Assembly: GCA_021814545.1 (NCBI GenBank)
Contig: JAKAID010000001.1
Location: 41,590-105,589, forward strand
Length of the DNA: 64,000 nucleotides
Direction: 5' to 3'
From: a bacterium
GTDB lineage: Bacteria; Patescibacteriota; Minisyncoccia; UBA6257; GWB1-50-10
The notes below the pieces were generated by a model, which saw nothing but the letters and a program-made list of their open reading frames with translations, was not told the DNA's origin and did not search any database. Position numbers and translations under genes: made by a program. The number at the start of each line of letters is the position of its first letter. The stretch's first letter is position 1. Below, piece by piece: positions 8,012-18,395 of the stretch.

Positions 8012-9211
8012 ATGCAATATGATTTCCCGTATCCTATGTCAAGGATGGCGATGAGAACAAAGGGGAGGGTATTCGTGGGGATGTCCGGCGGAGTGGATAG
8101 CTCCGTTGCGGCGTTTCTGTTGAGGCGCGCGGGGTATGACGTTACGGGTGTCTTTATCAAGTGCTACAACATCGACGGGTGTGCGGAGCGTGATGCAGAG
8201 GATGCGCGCCGGGTCGCGGGGCAGCTTGAGATTCCTTTCTATGTGTTCGATCTCGAGAAGGAGTATAAAAAGAAAGTGGTGCAATACATGATAGACGGAT
8301 ACAAGGCGGGCATTACGCCGAATCCGGACGTGATGTGCAACAAAGAGATAAAGTTCGGACTGTTTCTGAAACGCGCCTTGTCGCTTGGGGCTGACTATGT
8401 GGCAACGGGGCACTACGTGAAACTTATTAATTCGCTTCGCGCCCCCTCGGAGAGTGTCTCCGGGGCGACGCCCAAGTCTTACTCTCCTCGCGGGCGCGAA
8501 GCTTCTTCCCTTTCTCTCGCGATAGCAGAGGACAAGAATAAAGACCAGTCATACTTTTTGTGGACGCTTACGCAGAACGAGCTGCGGCACTGCCTCTTTC
8601 CGCTCGGAGAACTCACAAAACCGGAGGTGCGCGCCATTGCGAAGAAGGCAGGACTTGTGACCGCAGAAAAGAAAGATTCGCAGGGCATCTGCTTTTTAGG
8701 AATGGTGGATCTCAAAAGTTTTTTAAAAAAATACATCAAGACAAAGAAGGGAGAGGTGCTTTCGACCGAGGGCGAGGGTATCGGCGAGCATGATGGCGCG
8801 CAGTTCTACACGATAGGGCAGAGGCACGGGTTCCGATTAACGGCGCCCGTTAGAAAGGGCGCGCACGAAACGCAGCCGCACTATGTGGTGGGGAAGGACG
8901 TAAGACATAACACCATCACCGTTGCGGAAGGGAGCGCACATAACGCGCTCTTCAGAAAAACGCTTTTGCTCGCGAACGTGAATATCGTCACCCCAGTAAA
9001 GCAAACGGAGAAGGTCTTGGCACGCGTGCGCTATCGGCAGCCACTTTCGCCCGCAACGCTTGCTAAAAAAGGCGCGGGCGCAAAAACGCGCTATGTGCTT
9101 ACGTTTGCGAAGTCCCAAAAGTTCGTTGCGGAGGGGCAATCAGCTGTTTTCTACAAAAAGGGAGGGGGGCTGGTCGGGGGAGGTATTATCGTGTATAATG
9201 GTTTGGCATGA
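8012..9211 (+). CDS. mnmA: tRNA-specific 2-thiouridylase MnmA carrying a 23-codon in-frame insertion of a palindromic repeat (8434-8502)
   Basis: PP-loop VGMSGGVDSSVAA; GHY...NKDQSYFLW region; an extra ~23 aa (SLRAPSESVSGATPKSYSPRGRE) where E. coli MnmA has ~18 aa. Confidence 0.85.
   Translation: MQYDFPYPMSRMAMRTKGRVFVGMSGGVDSSVAAFLLRRAGYDVTGVFIKCYNIDGCAERDAEDARRVAGQLEIPFYVFDLEKEYKKKVVQYMIDGYKAGITPNPDVMCNKEIKFGLFLKRALSLGADYVATGHYVKLINSLRAPSESVSGATPKSYSPRGREASSLSLAIAEDKNKDQSYFLWTLTQNELRHCLFPLGELTKPEVRAIAKKAGLVTAEKKDSQGICFLGMVDLKSFLKKYIKTKKGEVLSTEGEGIGEHDGAQFYTIGQRHGFRLTAPVRKGAHETQPHYVVGKDVRHNTITVAEGSAHNALFRKTLLLANVNIVTPVKQTEKVLARVRYRQPLSPATLAKKGAGAKTRYVLTFAKSQKFVAEGQSAVFYKKGGGLVGGGIIVYNGLA
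8434..8502. repeat. family B palindromic element, copy B1, in frame within mnmA
   Basis: Outer inverted repeat gcttcgcgccc/gggcgcgaagc; inner stem ggagagt/actctcc; 29-nt core gtgtctccggggcgacgcccaagtcttac (8454-8482) identical to 18236-18264; 69 nt = 23 codons. Confidence 0.7.
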
Positions 9212-14180: not shown

Positions 14181-14502
14181 TGAGTATTATCCACTGTTTT
14201 GTTGTGCCGCGAATGCTATACTGTAATTGAATCCTGCTCTTAGATTTCGGCTCAAATGAATTCTACAGGGATTCCACATTGCGCAGTACCGCTGGTTCGT
14301 CCGGGGTTCCTGCGCAGAGGAAACCCACTTAGCTTCAAGCCGGAGAATTCACCAGAGCGGGATTCGTTTTTATTTACGAGCGCTGGCGTGAAGGGGAATG
14401 TTGTGGTTAAATCTAAGGCGGAGACGGGCTGTACGCGCTCCGCGCGTCATCCCATCGCTCGGACAAAATGAATACGAAGCGCATTCATTTTGCTCCTTCG
14501 CT

Positions 14503-14573
14503 CGGGCTGTAGTATACCGGTAGTACGCATGCATGGGGTGCATGTAGACCGGGTTCGATTCCCGGCAGCCCGA
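14503..14573 (+). tRNA. tRNA-Pro (anticodon GGG)
   Basis: Manual cloverleaf: acceptor CGGGCTG/CAGCCCG; D stem GTAT/GTAC; anticodon stem CATGC/GCATG with loop AUGGGGU (G37); T arm CCGGG-TTCGATT-CCCGG; discriminator A; no encoded CCA. Confidence 0.85.
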
Positions 14574-14589
14574 CAAAGAGTTAAGACGA

Positions 14590-14678
14590 CCGCAACAAAA
14601 AGACCTTCTTCAACCCGCTCACGCCCCGTAGGCGGGGCTGCGCTTCCGTTTAGGTTTCAGAAAATCTTTTTGTTGCGG
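14590..14678. repeat. family A palindromic element, copy A1
   Basis: Outer inverted repeat gcaacaaaaaga/tctttttgttgc; 5' box CAACCCGCTCACGCC; hairpin ccccgtaggcgggg; 3' box CTGCGCTTCCGTTTAGGTTTC. Confidence 0.65.
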
Positions 14679-14774
14679 ATACCGGTGGAAAGATTTTACG
14701 ATTTGCATTCGCGGGTATTTTTGTTAGCGTTATTGTAGAACTTGAACACATTATCGAGAAAGGAGGTCGGAGCG

Positions 14775-15401
14775 ATGAGGTATGTTACGGGAATTCCCGG
14801 ACAATTCGTGCTGTTTCCCAAGGAACCTGTCAGTTGTTCGCCCGAGCAGTTCTTCTCCGTGCTCCCCAAGCTTGGCGAAGAGCGCTTTGCGGTGACTGTG
14901 TGGTGCGAATCAGAGGCAGAGATAGAGGATTTCTTTTTCCGCGCCCTCATTTTCGGCGCGCGCATCCTCTCGCTCTACTTCGGCAGGAACCTTGCGCGCG
15001 CATTCGTGAAGTCTGGCGGGACGGGCAGATGCATGGCGTGCGGGAAGCCCTCGCGGCATTTCCGCGAATGCAGCTGCGGCACGTTCGAGTGGTGCGCCGC
15101 GTGCGAGGAAGCGGGCGTGCTGGTGTTCTGGAAGCGACTCGGCGACAAGGCGTCGCTTTCCGCGATTTACTGGGACCACGCGGACCACATGTGCGACCCC
15201 GAGTGTTGCGCGCGCGGTCATACGCTACCGCACGCTACCCGCACCGAGCTTGAGGCAATGGTGCCGAGGATCGAGACAGCCATCACCGACCTCGACGAAA
15301 AGAGCGTTGGAGGTTTCTCGGTTGCGGTGCGTGCGCGGACGCCCGGGGAGCGCGCGGAAGACCTCGCATGTCTTCTCGAAACGCATCACGTCACCGGATG
15401 A
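14775..15401 (+). CDS. cysteine-rich hypothetical protein
   Basis: AAGGAGG RBS before the ATG at 14775 (track ORF starts at 14742); many CxxC/CxC motifs (CMACGKPSRHFRECSCGTFEWCAACEE...CDPECCARGH). Confidence 0.5.
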   Translation: MRYVTGIPGQFVLFPKEPVSCSPEQFFSVLPKLGEERFAVTVWCESEAEIEDFFFRALIFGARILSLYFGRNLARAFVKSGGTGRCMACGKPSRHFRECSCGTFEWCAACEEAGVLVFWKRLGDKASLSAIYWDHADHMCDPECCARGHTLPHATRTELEAMVPRIETAITDLDEKSVGGFSVAVRARTPGERAEDLACLLETHHVTG

Positions 15402-15413
15402 ATTAAATGATAG

Positions 15414-15439
15414 CCGCCCCGTTTCCCACGGGGCTTTTT
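15414..15439 (+). terminator. rho-independent terminator
   Basis: gccccgtttcccacggggc followed by ttttt. Confidence 0.7.
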
Positions 15440-15542
15440 CTTGAGTTTGATTTTTTTTCTGATTTAGGAATAGTATGGCGATAGTATTCGGCACGGATAA
15501 AATCGTTCGTGGCGAACTTTCCAACTGAATAAGGAGGAGCAC

Positions 15543-16376
15543 ATGGCAAGGAAAACGTTCCGTGAAATGCTCGAGGATCGGTGGGGCAGGGAAAACTTCG
15601 TCTGCGTGGGGCTCGACCCGGTGTACGAAAAGCTTCCGAAGGCGGTGTGCGACCCCGGCAACATGGCGACCTCGATCATGAACTTCAACGCGCGCATCGT
15701 GGATGCCACGAAGGACCTTGTGTGCGCCTATAAGCCAAACAGCGCATTCTACGAGGCGCTCGGCAAGCTGGGCATGTACGCGCTCCGCGAGACCGTGGCG
15801 CACATCCGCGAAGCGGCGCCGGACGTGCCCGTCATCCTCGATGCGAAGCGCGGGGATATCGGCAACACGAACGAGGGGTATGTGCGTGCCGCGTTCGACT
15901 ACTTCGAGGCGGATGCCATTACCGTGAACCCCTACCTTGGCGCCGAGGCGCTCCAACCTTTTCTCGACAAGCGGGAGAAGGGTATCTTCGTGCTCTGCCG
16001 CACTTCGAACCCCGGTGCGGGCGAGCTCCAGGACCTGCAGATCGCCGAGGACCCGCTCTACCTCCACGTTGCGCGCCATGTGGCGCGGAAGTGGAACAAG
16101 TGGGGGAATTGCGCGCTCGTTGTGGGGGCGACCTGCCCGGACGAGCTCGCTGAGGTGCGGCGCGAGGTGGGTGACTTGCCCATTCTCATTCCCGGTATCG
16201 GAGCGCAAGGCGGGGAGCTTGAGAAGACGGTCCGCGCCGGTCGGGATTCGCGCCGCCGTGGGATGCTCGTGAACTCCTCGCGCGGCGTGCTCTATGCCTC
16301 GCGCGGCGAGGATTACGCCGCCGCCGCACGCCACGAGGTGGAGAAGCTTCGGAGCGCGGTGAACGCGTGCCGATAG
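15543..16376 (+). CDS. pyrF: orotidine 5'-phosphate decarboxylase (type 2)
   Basis: AAGGAGG RBS; DAKRGDIGNT active-site motif; VCVGLDP N-terminal motif. Confidence 0.85.
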   Translation: MARKTFREMLEDRWGRENFVCVGLDPVYEKLPKAVCDPGNMATSIMNFNARIVDATKDLVCAYKPNSAFYEALGKLGMYALRETVAHIREAAPDVPVILDAKRGDIGNTNEGYVRAAFDYFEADAITVNPYLGAEALQPFLDKREKGIFVLCRTSNPGAGELQDLQIAEDPLYLHVARHVARKWNKWGNCALVVGATCPDELAEVRREVGDLPILIPGIGAQGGELEKTVRAGRDSRRRGMLVNSSRGVLYASRGEDYAAAARHEVEKLRSAVNACR

Positions 16377-16390
16377 CTCGTGCGTATTAC

Positions 16391-16430
16391 AAAACCGCCT
16401 GTCCGGTTAGGGACAGGCGGTTTTTCTTTT
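16391..16430. terminator. bidirectional rho-independent terminator
   Basis: aaaaccgcctgtccggttagggacaggcggtttttctttt between convergent pyrF and rpmB. Confidence 0.75.
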
Positions 16431-16433
16431 GGG

Positions 16434-16622
16434 CTATTTCGCTCGGCTCAAGGTCTTCAAACACTTTACGCAGACATACGAGCGCTTGCCGGGAACCAAA
16501 AGGTTGGTCCATTGGAGATTCGCACGCTTTTTAGTCCACGTCGTGGGGTTGTGCTTACCGCGAAGGAGTTTTCGCGTGCCACCCATCTTTGCGCTTTTTT
16601 CACATCGCTCGCATTTCCTCAT
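16434..16622 (-). CDS. rpmB: 50S ribosomal protein L28
   Basis: 62 aa; CxxC N-terminus; KKRANLQW resembling KRRFNPNLQ and basic composition typical of L28. Confidence 0.55.
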   Translation of the reverse strand: MRKCERCEKSAKMGGTRKLLRGKHNPTTWTKKRANLQWTNLLVPGKRSYVCVKCLKTLSRAK

Positions 16623-16672
16623 AGTGAGAAGATTGTATCATTTTCCCCCGTATTGTAAAGGGGGGTTCATTC

Positions 16673-16769
16673 GCAGCCGCAAAACGAATTTCCCCTCAAC
16701 CCGCTCACGCTCCGTTAAAACGGAGCTTCGCTTCAGTTTGGGTTTCGGGGAAATTGTTTTGCTGGCTGC
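16673..16769. repeat. family A palindromic element, copy A2
   Basis: Outer inverted repeat gcagccgcaaaacgaatttcccc/ggggaaattgttttgctggctgc; 5' box CAACCCGCTCACGCT; hairpin ctccgttaaaacggag; 3' box CTTCGCTTCAGTTTGGGTTTC. Confidence 0.65.
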
Positions 16770-16800
16770 TCAATATCAGCGTTTAGGATAAACAGTGGAG

Positions 16801-17436
16801 TTAGCCGATGACCGTTTCCTTGTACGTTTTCTTGGAGAAATCGAATTCGTAGAAGATAAGCGCATCGCCACTGCCCACCTGGAGGATGAGCGTGTTGCGG
16901 TCTGTGCCGGGGGCGAAGTTTACACGGCCGGTGACCGAGCTCTTCGGCGGCATCGATTGGAAAAGGCCGTCCACACTCGCCGGAGGCACGTTGTCGCCCG
17001 TGAGGTTCACAATAGCGAAGAGCTGGCTCATATCAATGGCGGTATAGGAGCTTGCATTCGAGGTAAAGGCCTTTACCGCTACCTGGATTGTGCCGTCATC
17101 AAGTTTTGTGACGCTCTCCACCTCAATGGTGGTCGTCGCCTGCGGGGCGAGCTTGGGGCTTGAGCGCGCATCAAAAATGATGGCGGTTGGAATGGTGATG
17201 CCCGCAGAAGCAGTAGACGTGGCAGCGGGTGCGGCGCTTGGGGTTTCCGTCGCCGCGGGCGGCGTGGTTACGGCGGGGGCCGTGTTCTTTTGCAGCTGGA
17301 GCGAGAGTTCAAGGTTCTTTACCTCAGTCGAAAGCGAGGAGATTTTGTCGAACATGAGATAGAACCCGAACATAGTGCCCAAGACCACAATCAGAAGACC
17401 GATATAGACGAGCTTGTCATTTTCCATATAGTTCAA
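16801..17436 (-). CDS. membrane-anchored hypothetical protein with Thr/Pro/Ala-rich linker
   Basis: N-terminal TM LVYIGLLIVVLGTMFGFYLMF followed by a low-complexity linker and a beta-rich domain. Confidence 0.5.
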   Translation of the reverse strand: MNYMENDKLVYIGLLIVVLGTMFGFYLMFDKISSLSTEVKNLELSLQLQKNTAPAVTTPPAATETPSAAPAATSTASAGITIPTAIIFDARSSPKLAPQATTTIEVESVTKLDDGTIQVAVKAFTSNASSYTAIDMSQLFAIVNLTGDNVPPASVDGLFQSMPPKSSVTGRVNFAPGTDRNTLILQVGSGDALIFYEFDFSKKTYKETVIG

Positions 17437-17499
17437 TTATACCTTGTGCGAAGGTGAGGACGTGGGGACAACAGAGTGCTATAGTGGTAGACGAACGAA

Positions 17500-18120
17500 A
17501 TGGATATTACGCTTTTTATTTTTCAGCTCATCGTGCTTGTGTTCTCGGTCGTGGTACATGAGATATCGCATGGGTTTGTGGCGGAGCAATTGGGCGACCC
17601 GACCGCGCGGCGCGCAGGAAGGCTTACGCTGAATCCCGTGAATCACATCGACCCCGTAGGCTCGGTCATTTTGCCACTGCTTATGGCGATTGCGGGCGGT
17701 GTGGTGTTCGGGTGGGCAAAGCCGGTACCGGTCAATCCGCGTTACTTTAAAAACCCCGAGCGGGATTATGCGCTCGTTTCGGCGGCGGGACCCATAAGCA
17801 ATCTTACGCTCGCTGCCGCGTTCGCAATATTATTCCGCGCATTGCCCTTTGTTGTAGCGGGGGAGGCAGCCTCCGCATTGCAGAATTTTTTCAGCATCAT
17901 CGTCATTACGAACGTCTCGCTCGCGATCTTTAACCTTGTGCCCATTCCTCCGCTTGATGGCTCGGGGGTGCTCTTGGCGCTCCTGCCGCGCTCGGCAATG
18001 GGCGCGCGCATATTCCTTGAGCGGTACGGATTTATTATTTTCCTCGTGTTTGTCTTTTTCGGGCTCTCGTTCATTGGGCCCATCATAGAATTCGTCGCAC
18101 GAACGATGCTCGGAATGTAG
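17500..18120 (+). CDS. site-2 protease family (peptidase M50) zinc metalloprotease
   Basis: HEISHGFVAE HExxH motif inside a TM helix; multi-pass membrane protein. Confidence 0.75.
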   Translation: MDITLFIFQLIVLVFSVVVHEISHGFVAEQLGDPTARRAGRLTLNPVNHIDPVGSVILPLLMAIAGGVVFGWAKPVPVNPRYFKNPERDYALVSAAGPISNLTLAAAFAILFRALPFVVAGEAASALQNFFSIIVITNVSLAIFNLVPIPPLDGSGVLLALLPRSAMGARIFLERYGFIIFLVFVFFGLSFIGPIIEFVARTMLGM

Positions 18121-18156
18121 AGATTTTTTAAGTTTTTGTGCATTCAAAAATTGAAC

Positions 18157-18328
18157 GCAAACAAGAAGACCCCCTCGGAACCCGCTCACGCCATGCAGTC
18201 CCCGAAGCGCTCGCCCGACACTCTTGAGCTCGAGGGTGTCTCCGGGGCGACGCCCAAGTCTTACCCTCTCGCCAAGAGTGTCGGGGCTCGCTATGCGACT
18301 GTAGGTTTCGATAAGCCTTCTTATTTGC
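18157..18328. repeat. family A palindromic element, copy A3, containing nested family B copy B2
   Basis: Outer inverted repeat gcaaacaagaagacc/ccttcttatttgc; 5' box GAACCCGCTCACGCC; 3' box CTATGCGACTGTAGGTTTC; central hairpin replaced by the B element. Confidence 0.65.
18212..18287. repeat. family B palindromic element, copy B2 (nested in A3)
   Basis: Outer inverted repeat cgcccgacactcttg/caagagtgtcggggc; inner stem gagggt/accctc; identical 29-nt core at 18236-18264. Confidence 0.7.
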
Positions 18329-18395
18329 TCCTTGCCTCGAGGATACGGGGTTGACGTTTTTCTGTGTTGCCCCTATACTAATCCCTGTTTAACCG

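Follow-up and report, generated by a model that had tools for sequence, protein, structure and literature searches.

A widely spread hairpin-shaped repeat in Patescibacteria genomes

Introduction

The Patescibacteria (CPR) account for a large share of bacterial diversity and have tiny genomes; little has been described of their mobile elements or their non-coding RNAs. An earlier note on 64,000 nucleotides of DNA from one of these bacteria (the window) had drawn attention to three palindromic elements, here termed family A, and proposed that they represent a mobile or structured repeat family. The question raised by this locus is whether the three elements are copies of a genuine repeat and, if so, whether they are best explained as mobile DNA, as an RNA with a function of its own or as hairpins that serve the host at each site.

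Results and Discussion

Three copies of family A in the window

Reading of the sequence placed three elements of 89-172 bp where the earlier note had seen them. Copy 1 (14590-14678, minus strand) has a core at 14612-14658 that includes a variable central hairpin (14623-14638) and is enclosed by the arms of the outer stem, P1 (14590-14611 and 14659-14678); our covariance model R1 detects it on the minus strand with 90.2 bits (E=4e-24). Copy 2 (16673-16769, minus strand; core 16698-16746, central hairpin 16711-16725) scores 87.1 bits with the same model (E=3e-23). These two are intact insertions. Copy 3 (18157-18328, minus strand), which was delimited by sequence reading and is not scored as a full copy by the model, is a decayed copy with a nested module of a second family (family B) in place of its central hairpin, and does not make a third complete copy. 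A search of the whole 64 kb with the covariance model, filters off, found no fourth copy.

The 13-nt 5' box, AACCCGCTCACGC, occurs exactly three times in the window (14612, 16698 and 18179, all on the plus strand) and was matched 0 times in 100 shuffles (0 expected). It is unbroken even in copy 3 (18179-18191). The 3' box described previously, GTTTRGGTTTC, is intact in copies 1 and 2 and degenerate in copy 3, where the plus strand reads GACTGTAGGTTTC at this position; the box of copy 3 other than AACCCGCTCACGC is CTATGCGACTGTAGGTTTC against a consensus of CTGCGCTTCCGTTTRGGTTTC. When folded, each element forms a single long hairpin whose z-scores range from -5.8 to -8.1 (plus and minus strand, respectively: -5.8 and -7.2 for copy 1, -8.1 and -7.8 for copy 2, -6.2 and -7.6 for copy 3, in which the minus-strand P1 contains four G·U pairs), and neither the outer arms nor the central hairpins have the same sequence from copy to copy, as had been noted. 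The genomic positions were also correctly described: copy 1 follows tRNA-Pro (14503-14574), copy 2 has the stop codon of a membrane-protein gene (16801) on one side and the rpmB promoter (16632-16659) on the other, being located 14 nt upstream of this promoter, and copy 3 is located 23 nt upstream of the rpsL promoter.

Structure, covariation and strand

Family A elements are approximately 90-115 bp long, contain no ORF and are built around an almost invariant core of about 50 nt. On the sense strand, which corresponds to the minus strand of the window, the long P1 stem of variable sequence encloses a core with an invariant 2x2 GA/GA internal loop followed by a 5-bp helix (AACCY/GGGUU), an 8-nt bulge (AAACGGAA) and a short conserved helix that contains both a G·A mismatch and a bulged G; the apical hairpin beyond it, P3, is variable. 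The outer arms agree only in a loose consensus, GCRAAYAGC...AAAG...TTTTCTTC, and P3 "alleles" are common to elements with different arms. In some genomes the core and P1 were observed in either orientation relative to an outer shell.

The compensatory stems proposed in the earlier note are borne out by strong covariation in the alignment of copies, where 92% of cells are paired compared with 80% in shuffles, 26 of 38 stem pairs show double changes, and sliding the structures by 1-3 columns reduces pairing to 42-53%. The earlier note needs the correction that the strand which folds best is the minus strand of the window. When P1 is read on the sense strand, 44 G·U events are counted and 15 A·C events (de-duplicated by arm cluster; p=2e-4), an asymmetry that identifies the minus strand of the window as the folding strand. 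In addition, pair 40-90 is only ever C-G or U-G, and tandem G·A pairs are present on one strand only. Compensating stems alone are no proof of an RNA, since the same pattern could arise from single-stranded DNA that folds, or from quasi-palindromes corrected by template switching.

Distribution in Patescibacteria

A pattern scan revealed 35 further stem-bearing copies in nine Patescibacteria MAGs, with up to 14 per MAG, the hosts being Wolfe-, Jorgensen- and Saccharibacteria and members of other lineages; 11 pattern matches in other phyla lack the stems and were not counted as copies. In a second scan, for which the query consisted of one box only and the other box was not required, 88 groundwater metagenome stretches matched, and the non-required box was exact in 80 of 90 metagenome matches. 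The core is near-invariant even between distant lineages, and this extends to about 15 positions required by neither search pattern; within one MAG (H32-bin045_1) the copies are almost identical to one another. Copies are also locally clustered: the window has three within 3.7 kb, L042 has two within 2.7 kb and L177/L243 has two within 1.5 kb. The common strand of the three window copies, on which the earlier note had remarked, is real within the window but probably a matter of chance, as copies in opposite orientations are found on single contigs (MFKM01000028, MFKM01000033 and L177/L243).

These data dispose of the simplest alternative, namely that the elements are chance palindromes or ordinary terminators with shared short boxes. 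They are indeed intergenic hairpins, and a scan lists sub-hairpins inside them, but three exact 13-mers against none expected, more than 120 related copies with the same 50-nt core in other genomes and strong covariation refute this explanation, the probability of which is negligible.

Against Rfam, cmscan at the gathering threshold recovered only two tRNAs and a SAM riboswitch in the whole window, and at E<=10 between 14200 and 18700 a single match touched an element. This permuted-tmRNA match at 14549-14640, spanning the 3' end of tRNA-Pro and the start of copy 1, was judged spurious (E=0.96; its 18.4 bits fall short of the gathering score of 47). By eye and by Rfam, hammerhead, twister, pistol and hatchet ribozymes, k-turns, attC sites and r-protein leaders do not fit. 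Among viral contigs (IMG/VR) no true copies were found: a 15-mer returned 120 loci, all of which proved to be chance matches where examined, and the two-box pattern gave a single match, again due to chance. As far as these scans show, family A is not phage-borne. Literature searches by organism combined with MITE, REP and palindromic terms, and by the box sequences, yielded no description of family A, a real and so far undescribed repeat of hairpin shape that is widespread among Patescibacteria (CPR).

Insertion sites and gene context

A canonical family A copy is absent at all three window sites in five relatives (L170-L173 and L175). The site of copy 1 is empty in L172, that of copy 2 in L170 and L172, and that of copy 3 in L171 and L172, where spacers of 54-61 nt are present. 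The copies in the window thus represent insertions, which together with the many further copies supports the earlier proposal of a mobile or structured repeat. We infer the precise ends of the element, and the insertion event itself, from filled and empty sites that are less than near-identical in sequence; no direct repeat indicative of a target-site duplication was seen beside P1 in the copies inspected. Intergenic orthologous copies were sought among L040, L210, L234, L248, L184 and L227, whose flanks proved to be unrelated.

Family A elements are located mainly in the short spacer that leads from the end of one gene to the promoter of the next, and occasionally in frame within genes. Orientation relative to the two flanking genes is mixed (12 same/same, 12 opposite/opposite, 6 convergent and 3 divergent); with the opposite orientations on single contigs, this led us to reject a replication- or gene-strand bias. 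This random orientation and the Rfam result uphold the view of the earlier note that the elements are not cis-regulatory leaders. An intrinsic terminator has a G+C-rich stem with a T-run directly after it; the complete family A hairpins lack a T-run after P1 and were not predicted to be terminators, and genes in the region have terminators of their own (15416-15434 and 16391-16424). Small sub-hairpins inside the elements are called in a promoter/terminator scan.

In-frame copies are present in ligA (L009 and five metagenome loci) and in a glycosyltransferase (GT2) gene (six loci). Homologs without the insert align across these sites, and the host ORF remains open with the element in place; the ligA and GT2 inserts contain no stop codons, and P3 differs by 9 nt among GT2 alleles. 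The GT2 gene lacks the element in L264, L267 and L268, and a short form with the right arm only is found in L265 and L266, where the rest of the right arm is also present without the element. The GT2 junctions lie in A/G-rich microhomology. We considered whether P1 at GT2 might be an inverted duplication of the target, an idea that was dropped because the insert-free alleles (L265-L268) also show GAAAAA. As these alleles carry GAAAAA, the short ones also the rest of the right arm, and the inner arm CTTTT(T)CCCTC is common to the GT2 and ligA copies, the GT2 junctions are ambiguous.

Among five GT2 orthologs, third codon positions are invariant at 24 of 26 sites (92%) within the element and at 55 of 185 (30%) in the flanks (p about 1e-9), and over all sites the invariant positions amount to 95% of the element compared with 56% of the surrounding codons. 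To judge from these alignments, this conservation points to selection in place or homogenisation, rather than to a neutral selfish insertion.

Such constraint might reflect a structured RNA that is present in many copies and has its own function, for example as a new self-cleaving ribozyme, a protein-binding or sponge RNA or a processing signal; it would be transcribed from the sense strand, and its spread through genomes would be secondary. Nucleotide-level constraint within the GT2 and mnmA coding regions (for the latter see below), the near-invariant core in distant lineages, the strong covariation, and the tolerance of G·U on one strand together with tandem G·A pairs are all in keeping with such an RNA. 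On the other hand, the copies are oriented at random with respect to genes, no promoter belonging to the element was recognised, the sense strand of the strongly conserved GT2 copy runs antisense to the mRNA, and Rfam offers no match even at E<=10. Copies decay and are missing from close relatives, and in-frame, stop-free inserts with a 9-nt difference in P3 suggest translation through the element rather than excision. We regard this explanation as unlikely.

Family B and nested elements

The module nested in copy 3 occupies 18200-18291, with a core at 18238-18264 and arms at 18211-18225 and 18274-18287. Its invariant 27-nt core, GTCTCCGGGGCGACGCCCAAGTCTTAC, has exactly two matches in the window (0 expected), so that the earlier identification of a family-B element hosted by copy 3 is correct. 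The second copy (8434-8502, core 8456-8482) lies in frame in an mnmA-like gene (8012/8051-9211). The mnmA ortholog of L170 possesses the identical 27-nt core with different compensating stems, the flanking gene being 67-80% identical, and that of L171 is approximately 24-25 amino acids shorter at the family-B position in the alignment. The family-B core in mnmA behaves in the same way as family A in GT2, being conserved beyond the surrounding gene. The nesting, which had been likened to that of MITE/REP-like elements, recurs in L199, L206/L254 and L246; it is the apical hairpin of family A that accommodates the other hairpin modules.

Relationship to known mobile elements

The earlier statement that the window contains no transposase gene holds: no Y1-transposase-like ORF was detected, and ten unassigned ORFs contain no transposase domain. 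No transposase or other candidate enzyme was detected in the window or within 4 kb of about 100 copies. Searches using phmmer with IS200 and IS608 TnpA sequences, subject to the limited sensitivity of single-sequence queries, matched none of the 1,432 flanking ORFs and nothing in a six-frame translation of the window, and no parent IS for family A was found among the flanking ORFs. All-against-all clustering of the 1,432 ORFs within 4 kb of copies identified no recurrent neighbour gene, only the housekeeping neighbourhoods of orthologous loci.

REP/REPIN sequences are short extragenic hairpin repeats mobilised by RAYT (TnpAREP) (PMC3116915, PMC8266576), and the REP/REPIN-RAYT system is defined by a conserved GTAG-type tetranucleotide 5' of the palindrome (PMC8266576). 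Family A resembles them as a short, non-coding extragenic hairpin with tens of copies per genome, a stem kept by compensating changes, nesting and clustering, and an expected recognition of one folded single strand through bulges and mismatches. In contrast, it has no conserved tetranucleotide at the foot of P1 (alignment A1), forms one composite hairpin with a 50-nt asymmetric core rather than a 20-40-nt palindrome or a two-REP doublet, is not accompanied near any copy searched by a Y1 (HUH) transposase, the gene that REP/REPIN repeats typically flank, and also occurs within genes. In the latter respect it is reminiscent of the Rickettsia palindromic elements (RPEs), which are about 100-150 bp long and are found between genes and in frame in unrelated housekeeping genes of a reduced-genome bacterium (PMC10969869). 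Both are palindromic, with in-frame genic copies (ligA and GT2 in family A) that leave the host ORF open. The lineages are unrelated and the likeness is drawn from description rather than sequence; family A is mostly intergenic, with two host genes seen, and its core, in contrast to RPEs, is far more conserved than its arms.

Correia and ERIC MITEs share with family A their size, an intergenic location near promoters, presence or absence among strains, and long inverted repeats that can fold into hairpins as RNA; inversion has been reported for Correia (PMC10969869), akin to the two orientations of core and P1 in family A. Family A is, like classical MITEs, small, non-coding and multi-copy with presence/absence variation. 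However, these have conserved terminal inverted repeats, tied to a parent IS, and a target-site duplication, whereas family A has variable arms around a conserved centre, and no duplication was seen in the copies inspected. With attC sites and IS200/IS605 ends it has in common a stem structure more conserved than its sequence, variable apical length, conserved unpaired bases and strand asymmetry. Integron attC sites carry R''/R' boxes (RYYYAAC...GTTRRRY) in a cassette array beside intI. By eye, family A has no such boxes and, unlike attC sites and IS200/IS605 ends, lacks an integron, cassette array or adjacent integrase or TnpA; its orientation along contigs is non-uniform and its context is one of housekeeping genes.

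Correia and ERIC elements have reported host roles as mRNA stabilisers or terminators and as RNase III or protein-binding sites (PMC10969869), and family A might likewise be a domesticated REP/BIME- or ERIC-like element that acts as an mRNA 3'-end stabiliser, terminator, RNase III site or nucleoid/topology site and is selected locus by locus. The position of copies between a stop codon and the next promoter, their clustering (window, L042 and L177/L243) and the strong in-place conservation at GT2 are compatible with this idea, which is nevertheless unlikely: the corresponding sites of relatives lack the element, the stem is not followed by a T-run, the genes of the region carry ordinary terminators, copies within ligA and GT2 cannot be terminators, and the invariant asymmetric core exceeds the needs of a stabilising hairpin.

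We therefore favour, with a probability of roughly 0.6, the interpretation that family A is a small non-autonomous mobile hairpin element of the MITE/REPIN/RPE type, the core of which would be recognised by a trans-acting factor. Against this reading stand the failure to find a candidate enzyme in the window or near copies, the lack of a visible target-site duplication, the variable outer arms, and the in-place conservation at GT2 and mnmA. The element would spread as a single strand, the sense strand in DNA or RNA form, that folds as an intermediate, and the conserved core with its bulge and mismatches would be the recognition module for an enzyme encoded elsewhere, as in REP/REPIN-RAYT, IS200/IS605 ends and attC. 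More tentatively, new copies may preferentially enter inverted repeats or hairpins that already exist, at their centre, which would explain both the nesting and the P1 codons at GT2 that are shared with some alleles without the element.

A bolder proposal, which we likewise consider improbable, is that the invariant core is the working part of a new nucleic-acid module read on one strand, either a catalytic or protein-recruiting RNA or the substrate of a CPR-specific single-strand enzyme, that inserts into hairpin apices and is kept by purifying selection even in essential genes, with family B and at least one more family as parallel cases. Apex insertion would explain the hairpin-in-hairpin arrangement, the flip of core and P1 relative to the outer shell, and P1 arms that are partly host codons.

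Streamlined CPR genomes thus carry proliferating structured repeats, even within ligA and a glycosyltransferase gene, and in-place conservation, strand-specific structure and modular nesting set these apart from a routine MITE. The covariance model built here could aid annotation and help to explain contig breaks in CPR MAGs, and the mechanism, whether it involves an enzyme, an RNA function or hairpin-apex targeting, is approachable in existing groundwater metagenomes and metatranscriptomes. At least one more hairpin family, distinct from families A and B, was observed in related loci.

The three elements of the repeat that we term family A

We confirmed by reading the window sequence that hairpin elements lie at 14590-14678, 16673-16769 and 18157-18328 (copies 1, 2 and 3 of family A), as the earlier note had claimed. 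The box AACCCGCTCACGC has exactly three matches in the 64 kb, all on the plus strand, and none in 100 shuffles, and every element folds into a single long hairpin with a fold z-score between -5.8 and -8.1. Copy 1 is located after tRNA-Pro. Copy 2 has the stop codon of a membrane-protein gene on one side and the promoter of rpmB (TTTACA-16-TACAAT, 16632-16659) on the other, and copy 3 is flanked by the M50 protease gene and by the promoter of rpsL (TTGACG-17-TATACT, 18351-18379). The second box, GTTTRGGTTTC, had been ascribed to all three copies; it is intact in copies 1 and 2 and degenerate in copy 3, which retains the first box. In place of its central hairpin copy 3 carries a module with the same 27-nt core as at 8456-8482, in agreement with the proposed nesting of a second hairpin module, family B. 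Copy 3 shows decay. A covariance model of family A, applied to the whole window with filters off, scored copy 1 at 90 bits and copy 2 at 87 bits and gave no other convincing match. The source genome has a G+C content of 54.6% and its neighbours in protein searches are Patescibacteria.

Consensus structure and the folding strand

Read on the minus strand of the window, the consensus comprises an outer stem (P1) of approximately 20-27 bp and variable sequence, a 2x2 internal loop (GA/GA), an AACCY/GGGUU helix, an 8-nt bulge (AAACGGAA), an inner helix (GC, a G·A mismatch, CA/UG and a bulged G) and a variable apical hairpin (P3), with an intervening sequence of 10 to 39 nt. Among 36 distinct sequences 92% of cells pair; column shuffling lowers this to 80% and sliding of the partner to 42-53%. 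Two-sided changes occur in 26 of the 38 pairs, so that the covarying arms noted previously are borne out. After related arms were collapsed to 21 clusters, P1 contained 44 G·U wobble events on the minus-strand reading versus 15 A·C (p=2e-4), an A·C on one strand being a G·U when the opposite strand is read. In addition, the variable position beside the 5-bp helix is either C or U and faces an invariant G. On account of these two features we take the minus strand of the window to be the sense strand; what folds may be either RNA or single-stranded DNA. When quasi-palindromes are corrected by template switching in the course of replication, compensating changes can arise without selection, and this caveat applies to all structural arguments for family A, but such correction would not produce the observed strand asymmetry.

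Distribution of family A

A single scan of species-representative genomes, in which both boxes were required, returned 46 loci, of which 35 have the full architecture. All 35 come from Patescibacteria MAGs: H32-bin045_1 contributes 14 copies, one Jorgensenbacteria MAG 10, two Wolfebacteria MAGs together 3, two MAGs labelled Saccharibacteria together 4 and three further MAGs together 4. The 11 matches in other phyla lack the arms and are due to chance. When metagenomes were scanned with the minus-strand box GAAACCYAAACGGAAGCGCAG as sole query, 88 stretches were identified, chiefly from groundwater. In 80 of the 90 matches the other box, which this query did not demand, is exact, and in most of the remainder it is near-exact; the search pattern alone thus does not explain the conservation of the core. 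There must be more divergent members; one (L042:2625-2747, from the loci compared) was picked up by the covariance model only, and a further locus (L190) carries a truncated copy. No true copy was found in scans of IMG/VR viral contigs. No Rfam family matches the elements, and we found no description of family A in the literature searched.

Modularity and resemblance to known repeats

P3 hairpins fall into a few recurring "alleles" (e.g. TCCCTCCGCTCGCGAGCGGAGGGA and CTCCGATGAAATCGGAG) that are paired with unrelated P1 arms, and the apex of P3 hosts extra palindromes or whole foreign modules in copy 3 of the window and at L199, L206/L254 and L246. In H32-type, Jorgensenbacteria and some other MAGs, family A is itself enclosed by an outer inverted repeat of 13-14 bp, (C)TTGAATTACGAAA, examples of which are found among L001-L045 from the H32-bin045_1, Jorgensenbacteria and H52 MAGs (L001:5200-5420 and L013:3000-3170). 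Two mutually non-complementary spacers, X and Y, part the outer repeat from P1. The block formed by the core and P1 occurs in either orientation with respect to X and Y (approximately 3:1 in the H32 type and 5:5 in Jorgensenbacteria), and the P1 wobble positions move together with the core. This flip fits a module that can enter the apex of another in both directions, or a hairpin that inverts as a whole. At L013:5029-5058 the outer repeat is present as a solo remnant.

We consider, with a probability of about 0.6, that family A is a non-autonomous mobile hairpin element, the folded single strand of which would be recognised and read by a putative trans-acting factor. Its logic recalls REP/REPIN sequences, its in-frame insertions recall RPEs and its location recalls Correia/ERIC elements. 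However, its terminal repeats lack the conservation expected of a classical MITE and no target duplication was seen; it differs from REP in the absence of GTAG, with no RAYT seen, and from attC in the absence of attC boxes. Because it departs from each of these families in defining features, we assign family A to none of them.

Orientation and neighbouring genes

It is also conceivable, albeit quite improbable, that family A represents an RNA with a function of its own. The orientation of flanking genes was compared for 40 copies: 12 cases are same/same, 12 opposite/opposite, 6 convergent and 3 divergent. Opposite orientations of the element are seen within single contigs, and hence the common strand of the three window copies, although correctly reported, is most simply due to chance (probability 0.25). 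Clustering of the 1,432 ORFs located within 4 kb of copies revealed housekeeping neighbourhoods only, and no relative of Y1 transposases was detected among these ORFs or in the window. Ten unassigned ORFs of the window showed no transposase domain, consistent with the reported absence of a transposase gene.

Orthologous sites in related genomes

Gene order is kept in five relatives (L170-L173 and L175) whose M50 proteases are 69-77% identical, and none of them has a canonical family A copy at the three window sites, which speaks for insertion and loss of the element. The spacer between the M50 protease gene and rpsL is 276 nt in the window versus 54-61 nt in L171 and L172, L170 and L172 have an essentially empty spacer upstream of rpmB, and the stretch after tRNA-Pro lacks an element in L172. 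At the rpmB site L173 contains a different palindromic element (L173:2108-2222, arms CGATTCCCATTCTTAC) that is possibly related to family A, and another hairpin insert, with arms CCCCGTTAGAGGC, is found in the rpsL promoter region of two relatives (L170:10640-10790 and L173:3570-3700).

A third hairpin repeat (CAGAAGCAGAATAATTTT...CTCAGACCAAGCCCGTCG...) is nested in or adjoins family A at L199:120-270 and in the upstream flanks of L234 and L248. The segment of the window from tRNA-Pro/ndk to rpmB (14700-16400) is a local variable region adjoining a tRNA gene: gene content varies among L170-L175, the window encoding a 208-residue Cys-rich protein and PyrF, and the relatives RDD, or PEPcase_2 and an aminotransferase, or an SBP/ion-channel gene.

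Copies within genes and constraint in place

Family A is also found inside genes. In ligA it accounts for approximately 30 extra residues just N-terminal to the KxDG motif (L009 and five metagenome loci), and in a family-2 glycosyltransferase (GT2) gene it is inserted in frame at six loci (L024, L180, L197, L204, L208 and L222), the orientation of the element being opposite in the two genes. GT2 homologs display three allelic states at one codon position: no insert (e.g. L264, L267 and L268), a filled form (KEEI-S/T-FSLNPLTP...GLRFRLGFG-EKEISSS) and a short form with the right arm only (KEEI-EKEISSS; L265 and L266). The extra DNA amounts to 66-75 nt, and P3 differs in length by 9 nt between alleles, so that the frame is kept. 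P1 consists in part of codons that are also present without the element (AAAGAAGAAAT and GAAAAAGAAATTTCTTCT), and the inner arm CTTTT(T)CCCTC is common to the GT2 and ligA copies. Most simply, the mobile unit would consist of inner P1 and the core and would have landed centrally in a pre-existing A/G-rich inverted repeat. The insert junctions fall in microhomology, however, and change between the short and filled forms may have run in either direction.

Comparison of five distinct GT2 orthologs shows invariance at 75 of 79 positions within the element (P3 excluded) and at 312 of 554 in the coding sequence on either side; for third codon positions the values are 24 of 26 and 55 of 185 respectively (p ~1e-9). 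A comparable situation is observed for the family B hairpin at 8434-8502, which lies in frame within an mnmA-like gene (8051-9211). Its 27-nt core is identical in the window and L170, in a gene that is otherwise 67-80% identical, and its stems differ with compensation; in the alignment the L171 ortholog is some 24-25 residues shorter here (29 overall), with only GTCTCTGG...CCACAC in this place. The constraint may reflect locus-by-locus selection on the sequence, or else recurrent homogenisation of one site or re-insertion into it. Constraint in place is the strongest argument that the elements exceed neutral passengers. We think it unlikely that family A is a domesticated structural element, a role that is compatible with mobility.

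Other structured elements in the window

The only Rfam families that reach the gathering threshold in the window are two tRNAs and a SAM-I riboswitch (RF00162; 63159-63267, minus strand, 54.6 bits). A conserved structured region of approximately 145 nt (about 14228-14372, plus strand) is located between ndk and tRNA-Pro and is common to the window, L170, L171 and L172; it has no match in Rfam at E<=10. A TATACT box precedes the region, a T-run ends it, and the boxes GAGGAAACCCAC and GGGATTCC within it are invariant. RNAalifold predicts 44 pairs, 8 of them with double changes among only four sequences, and the region is probably an unannotated small RNA gene.
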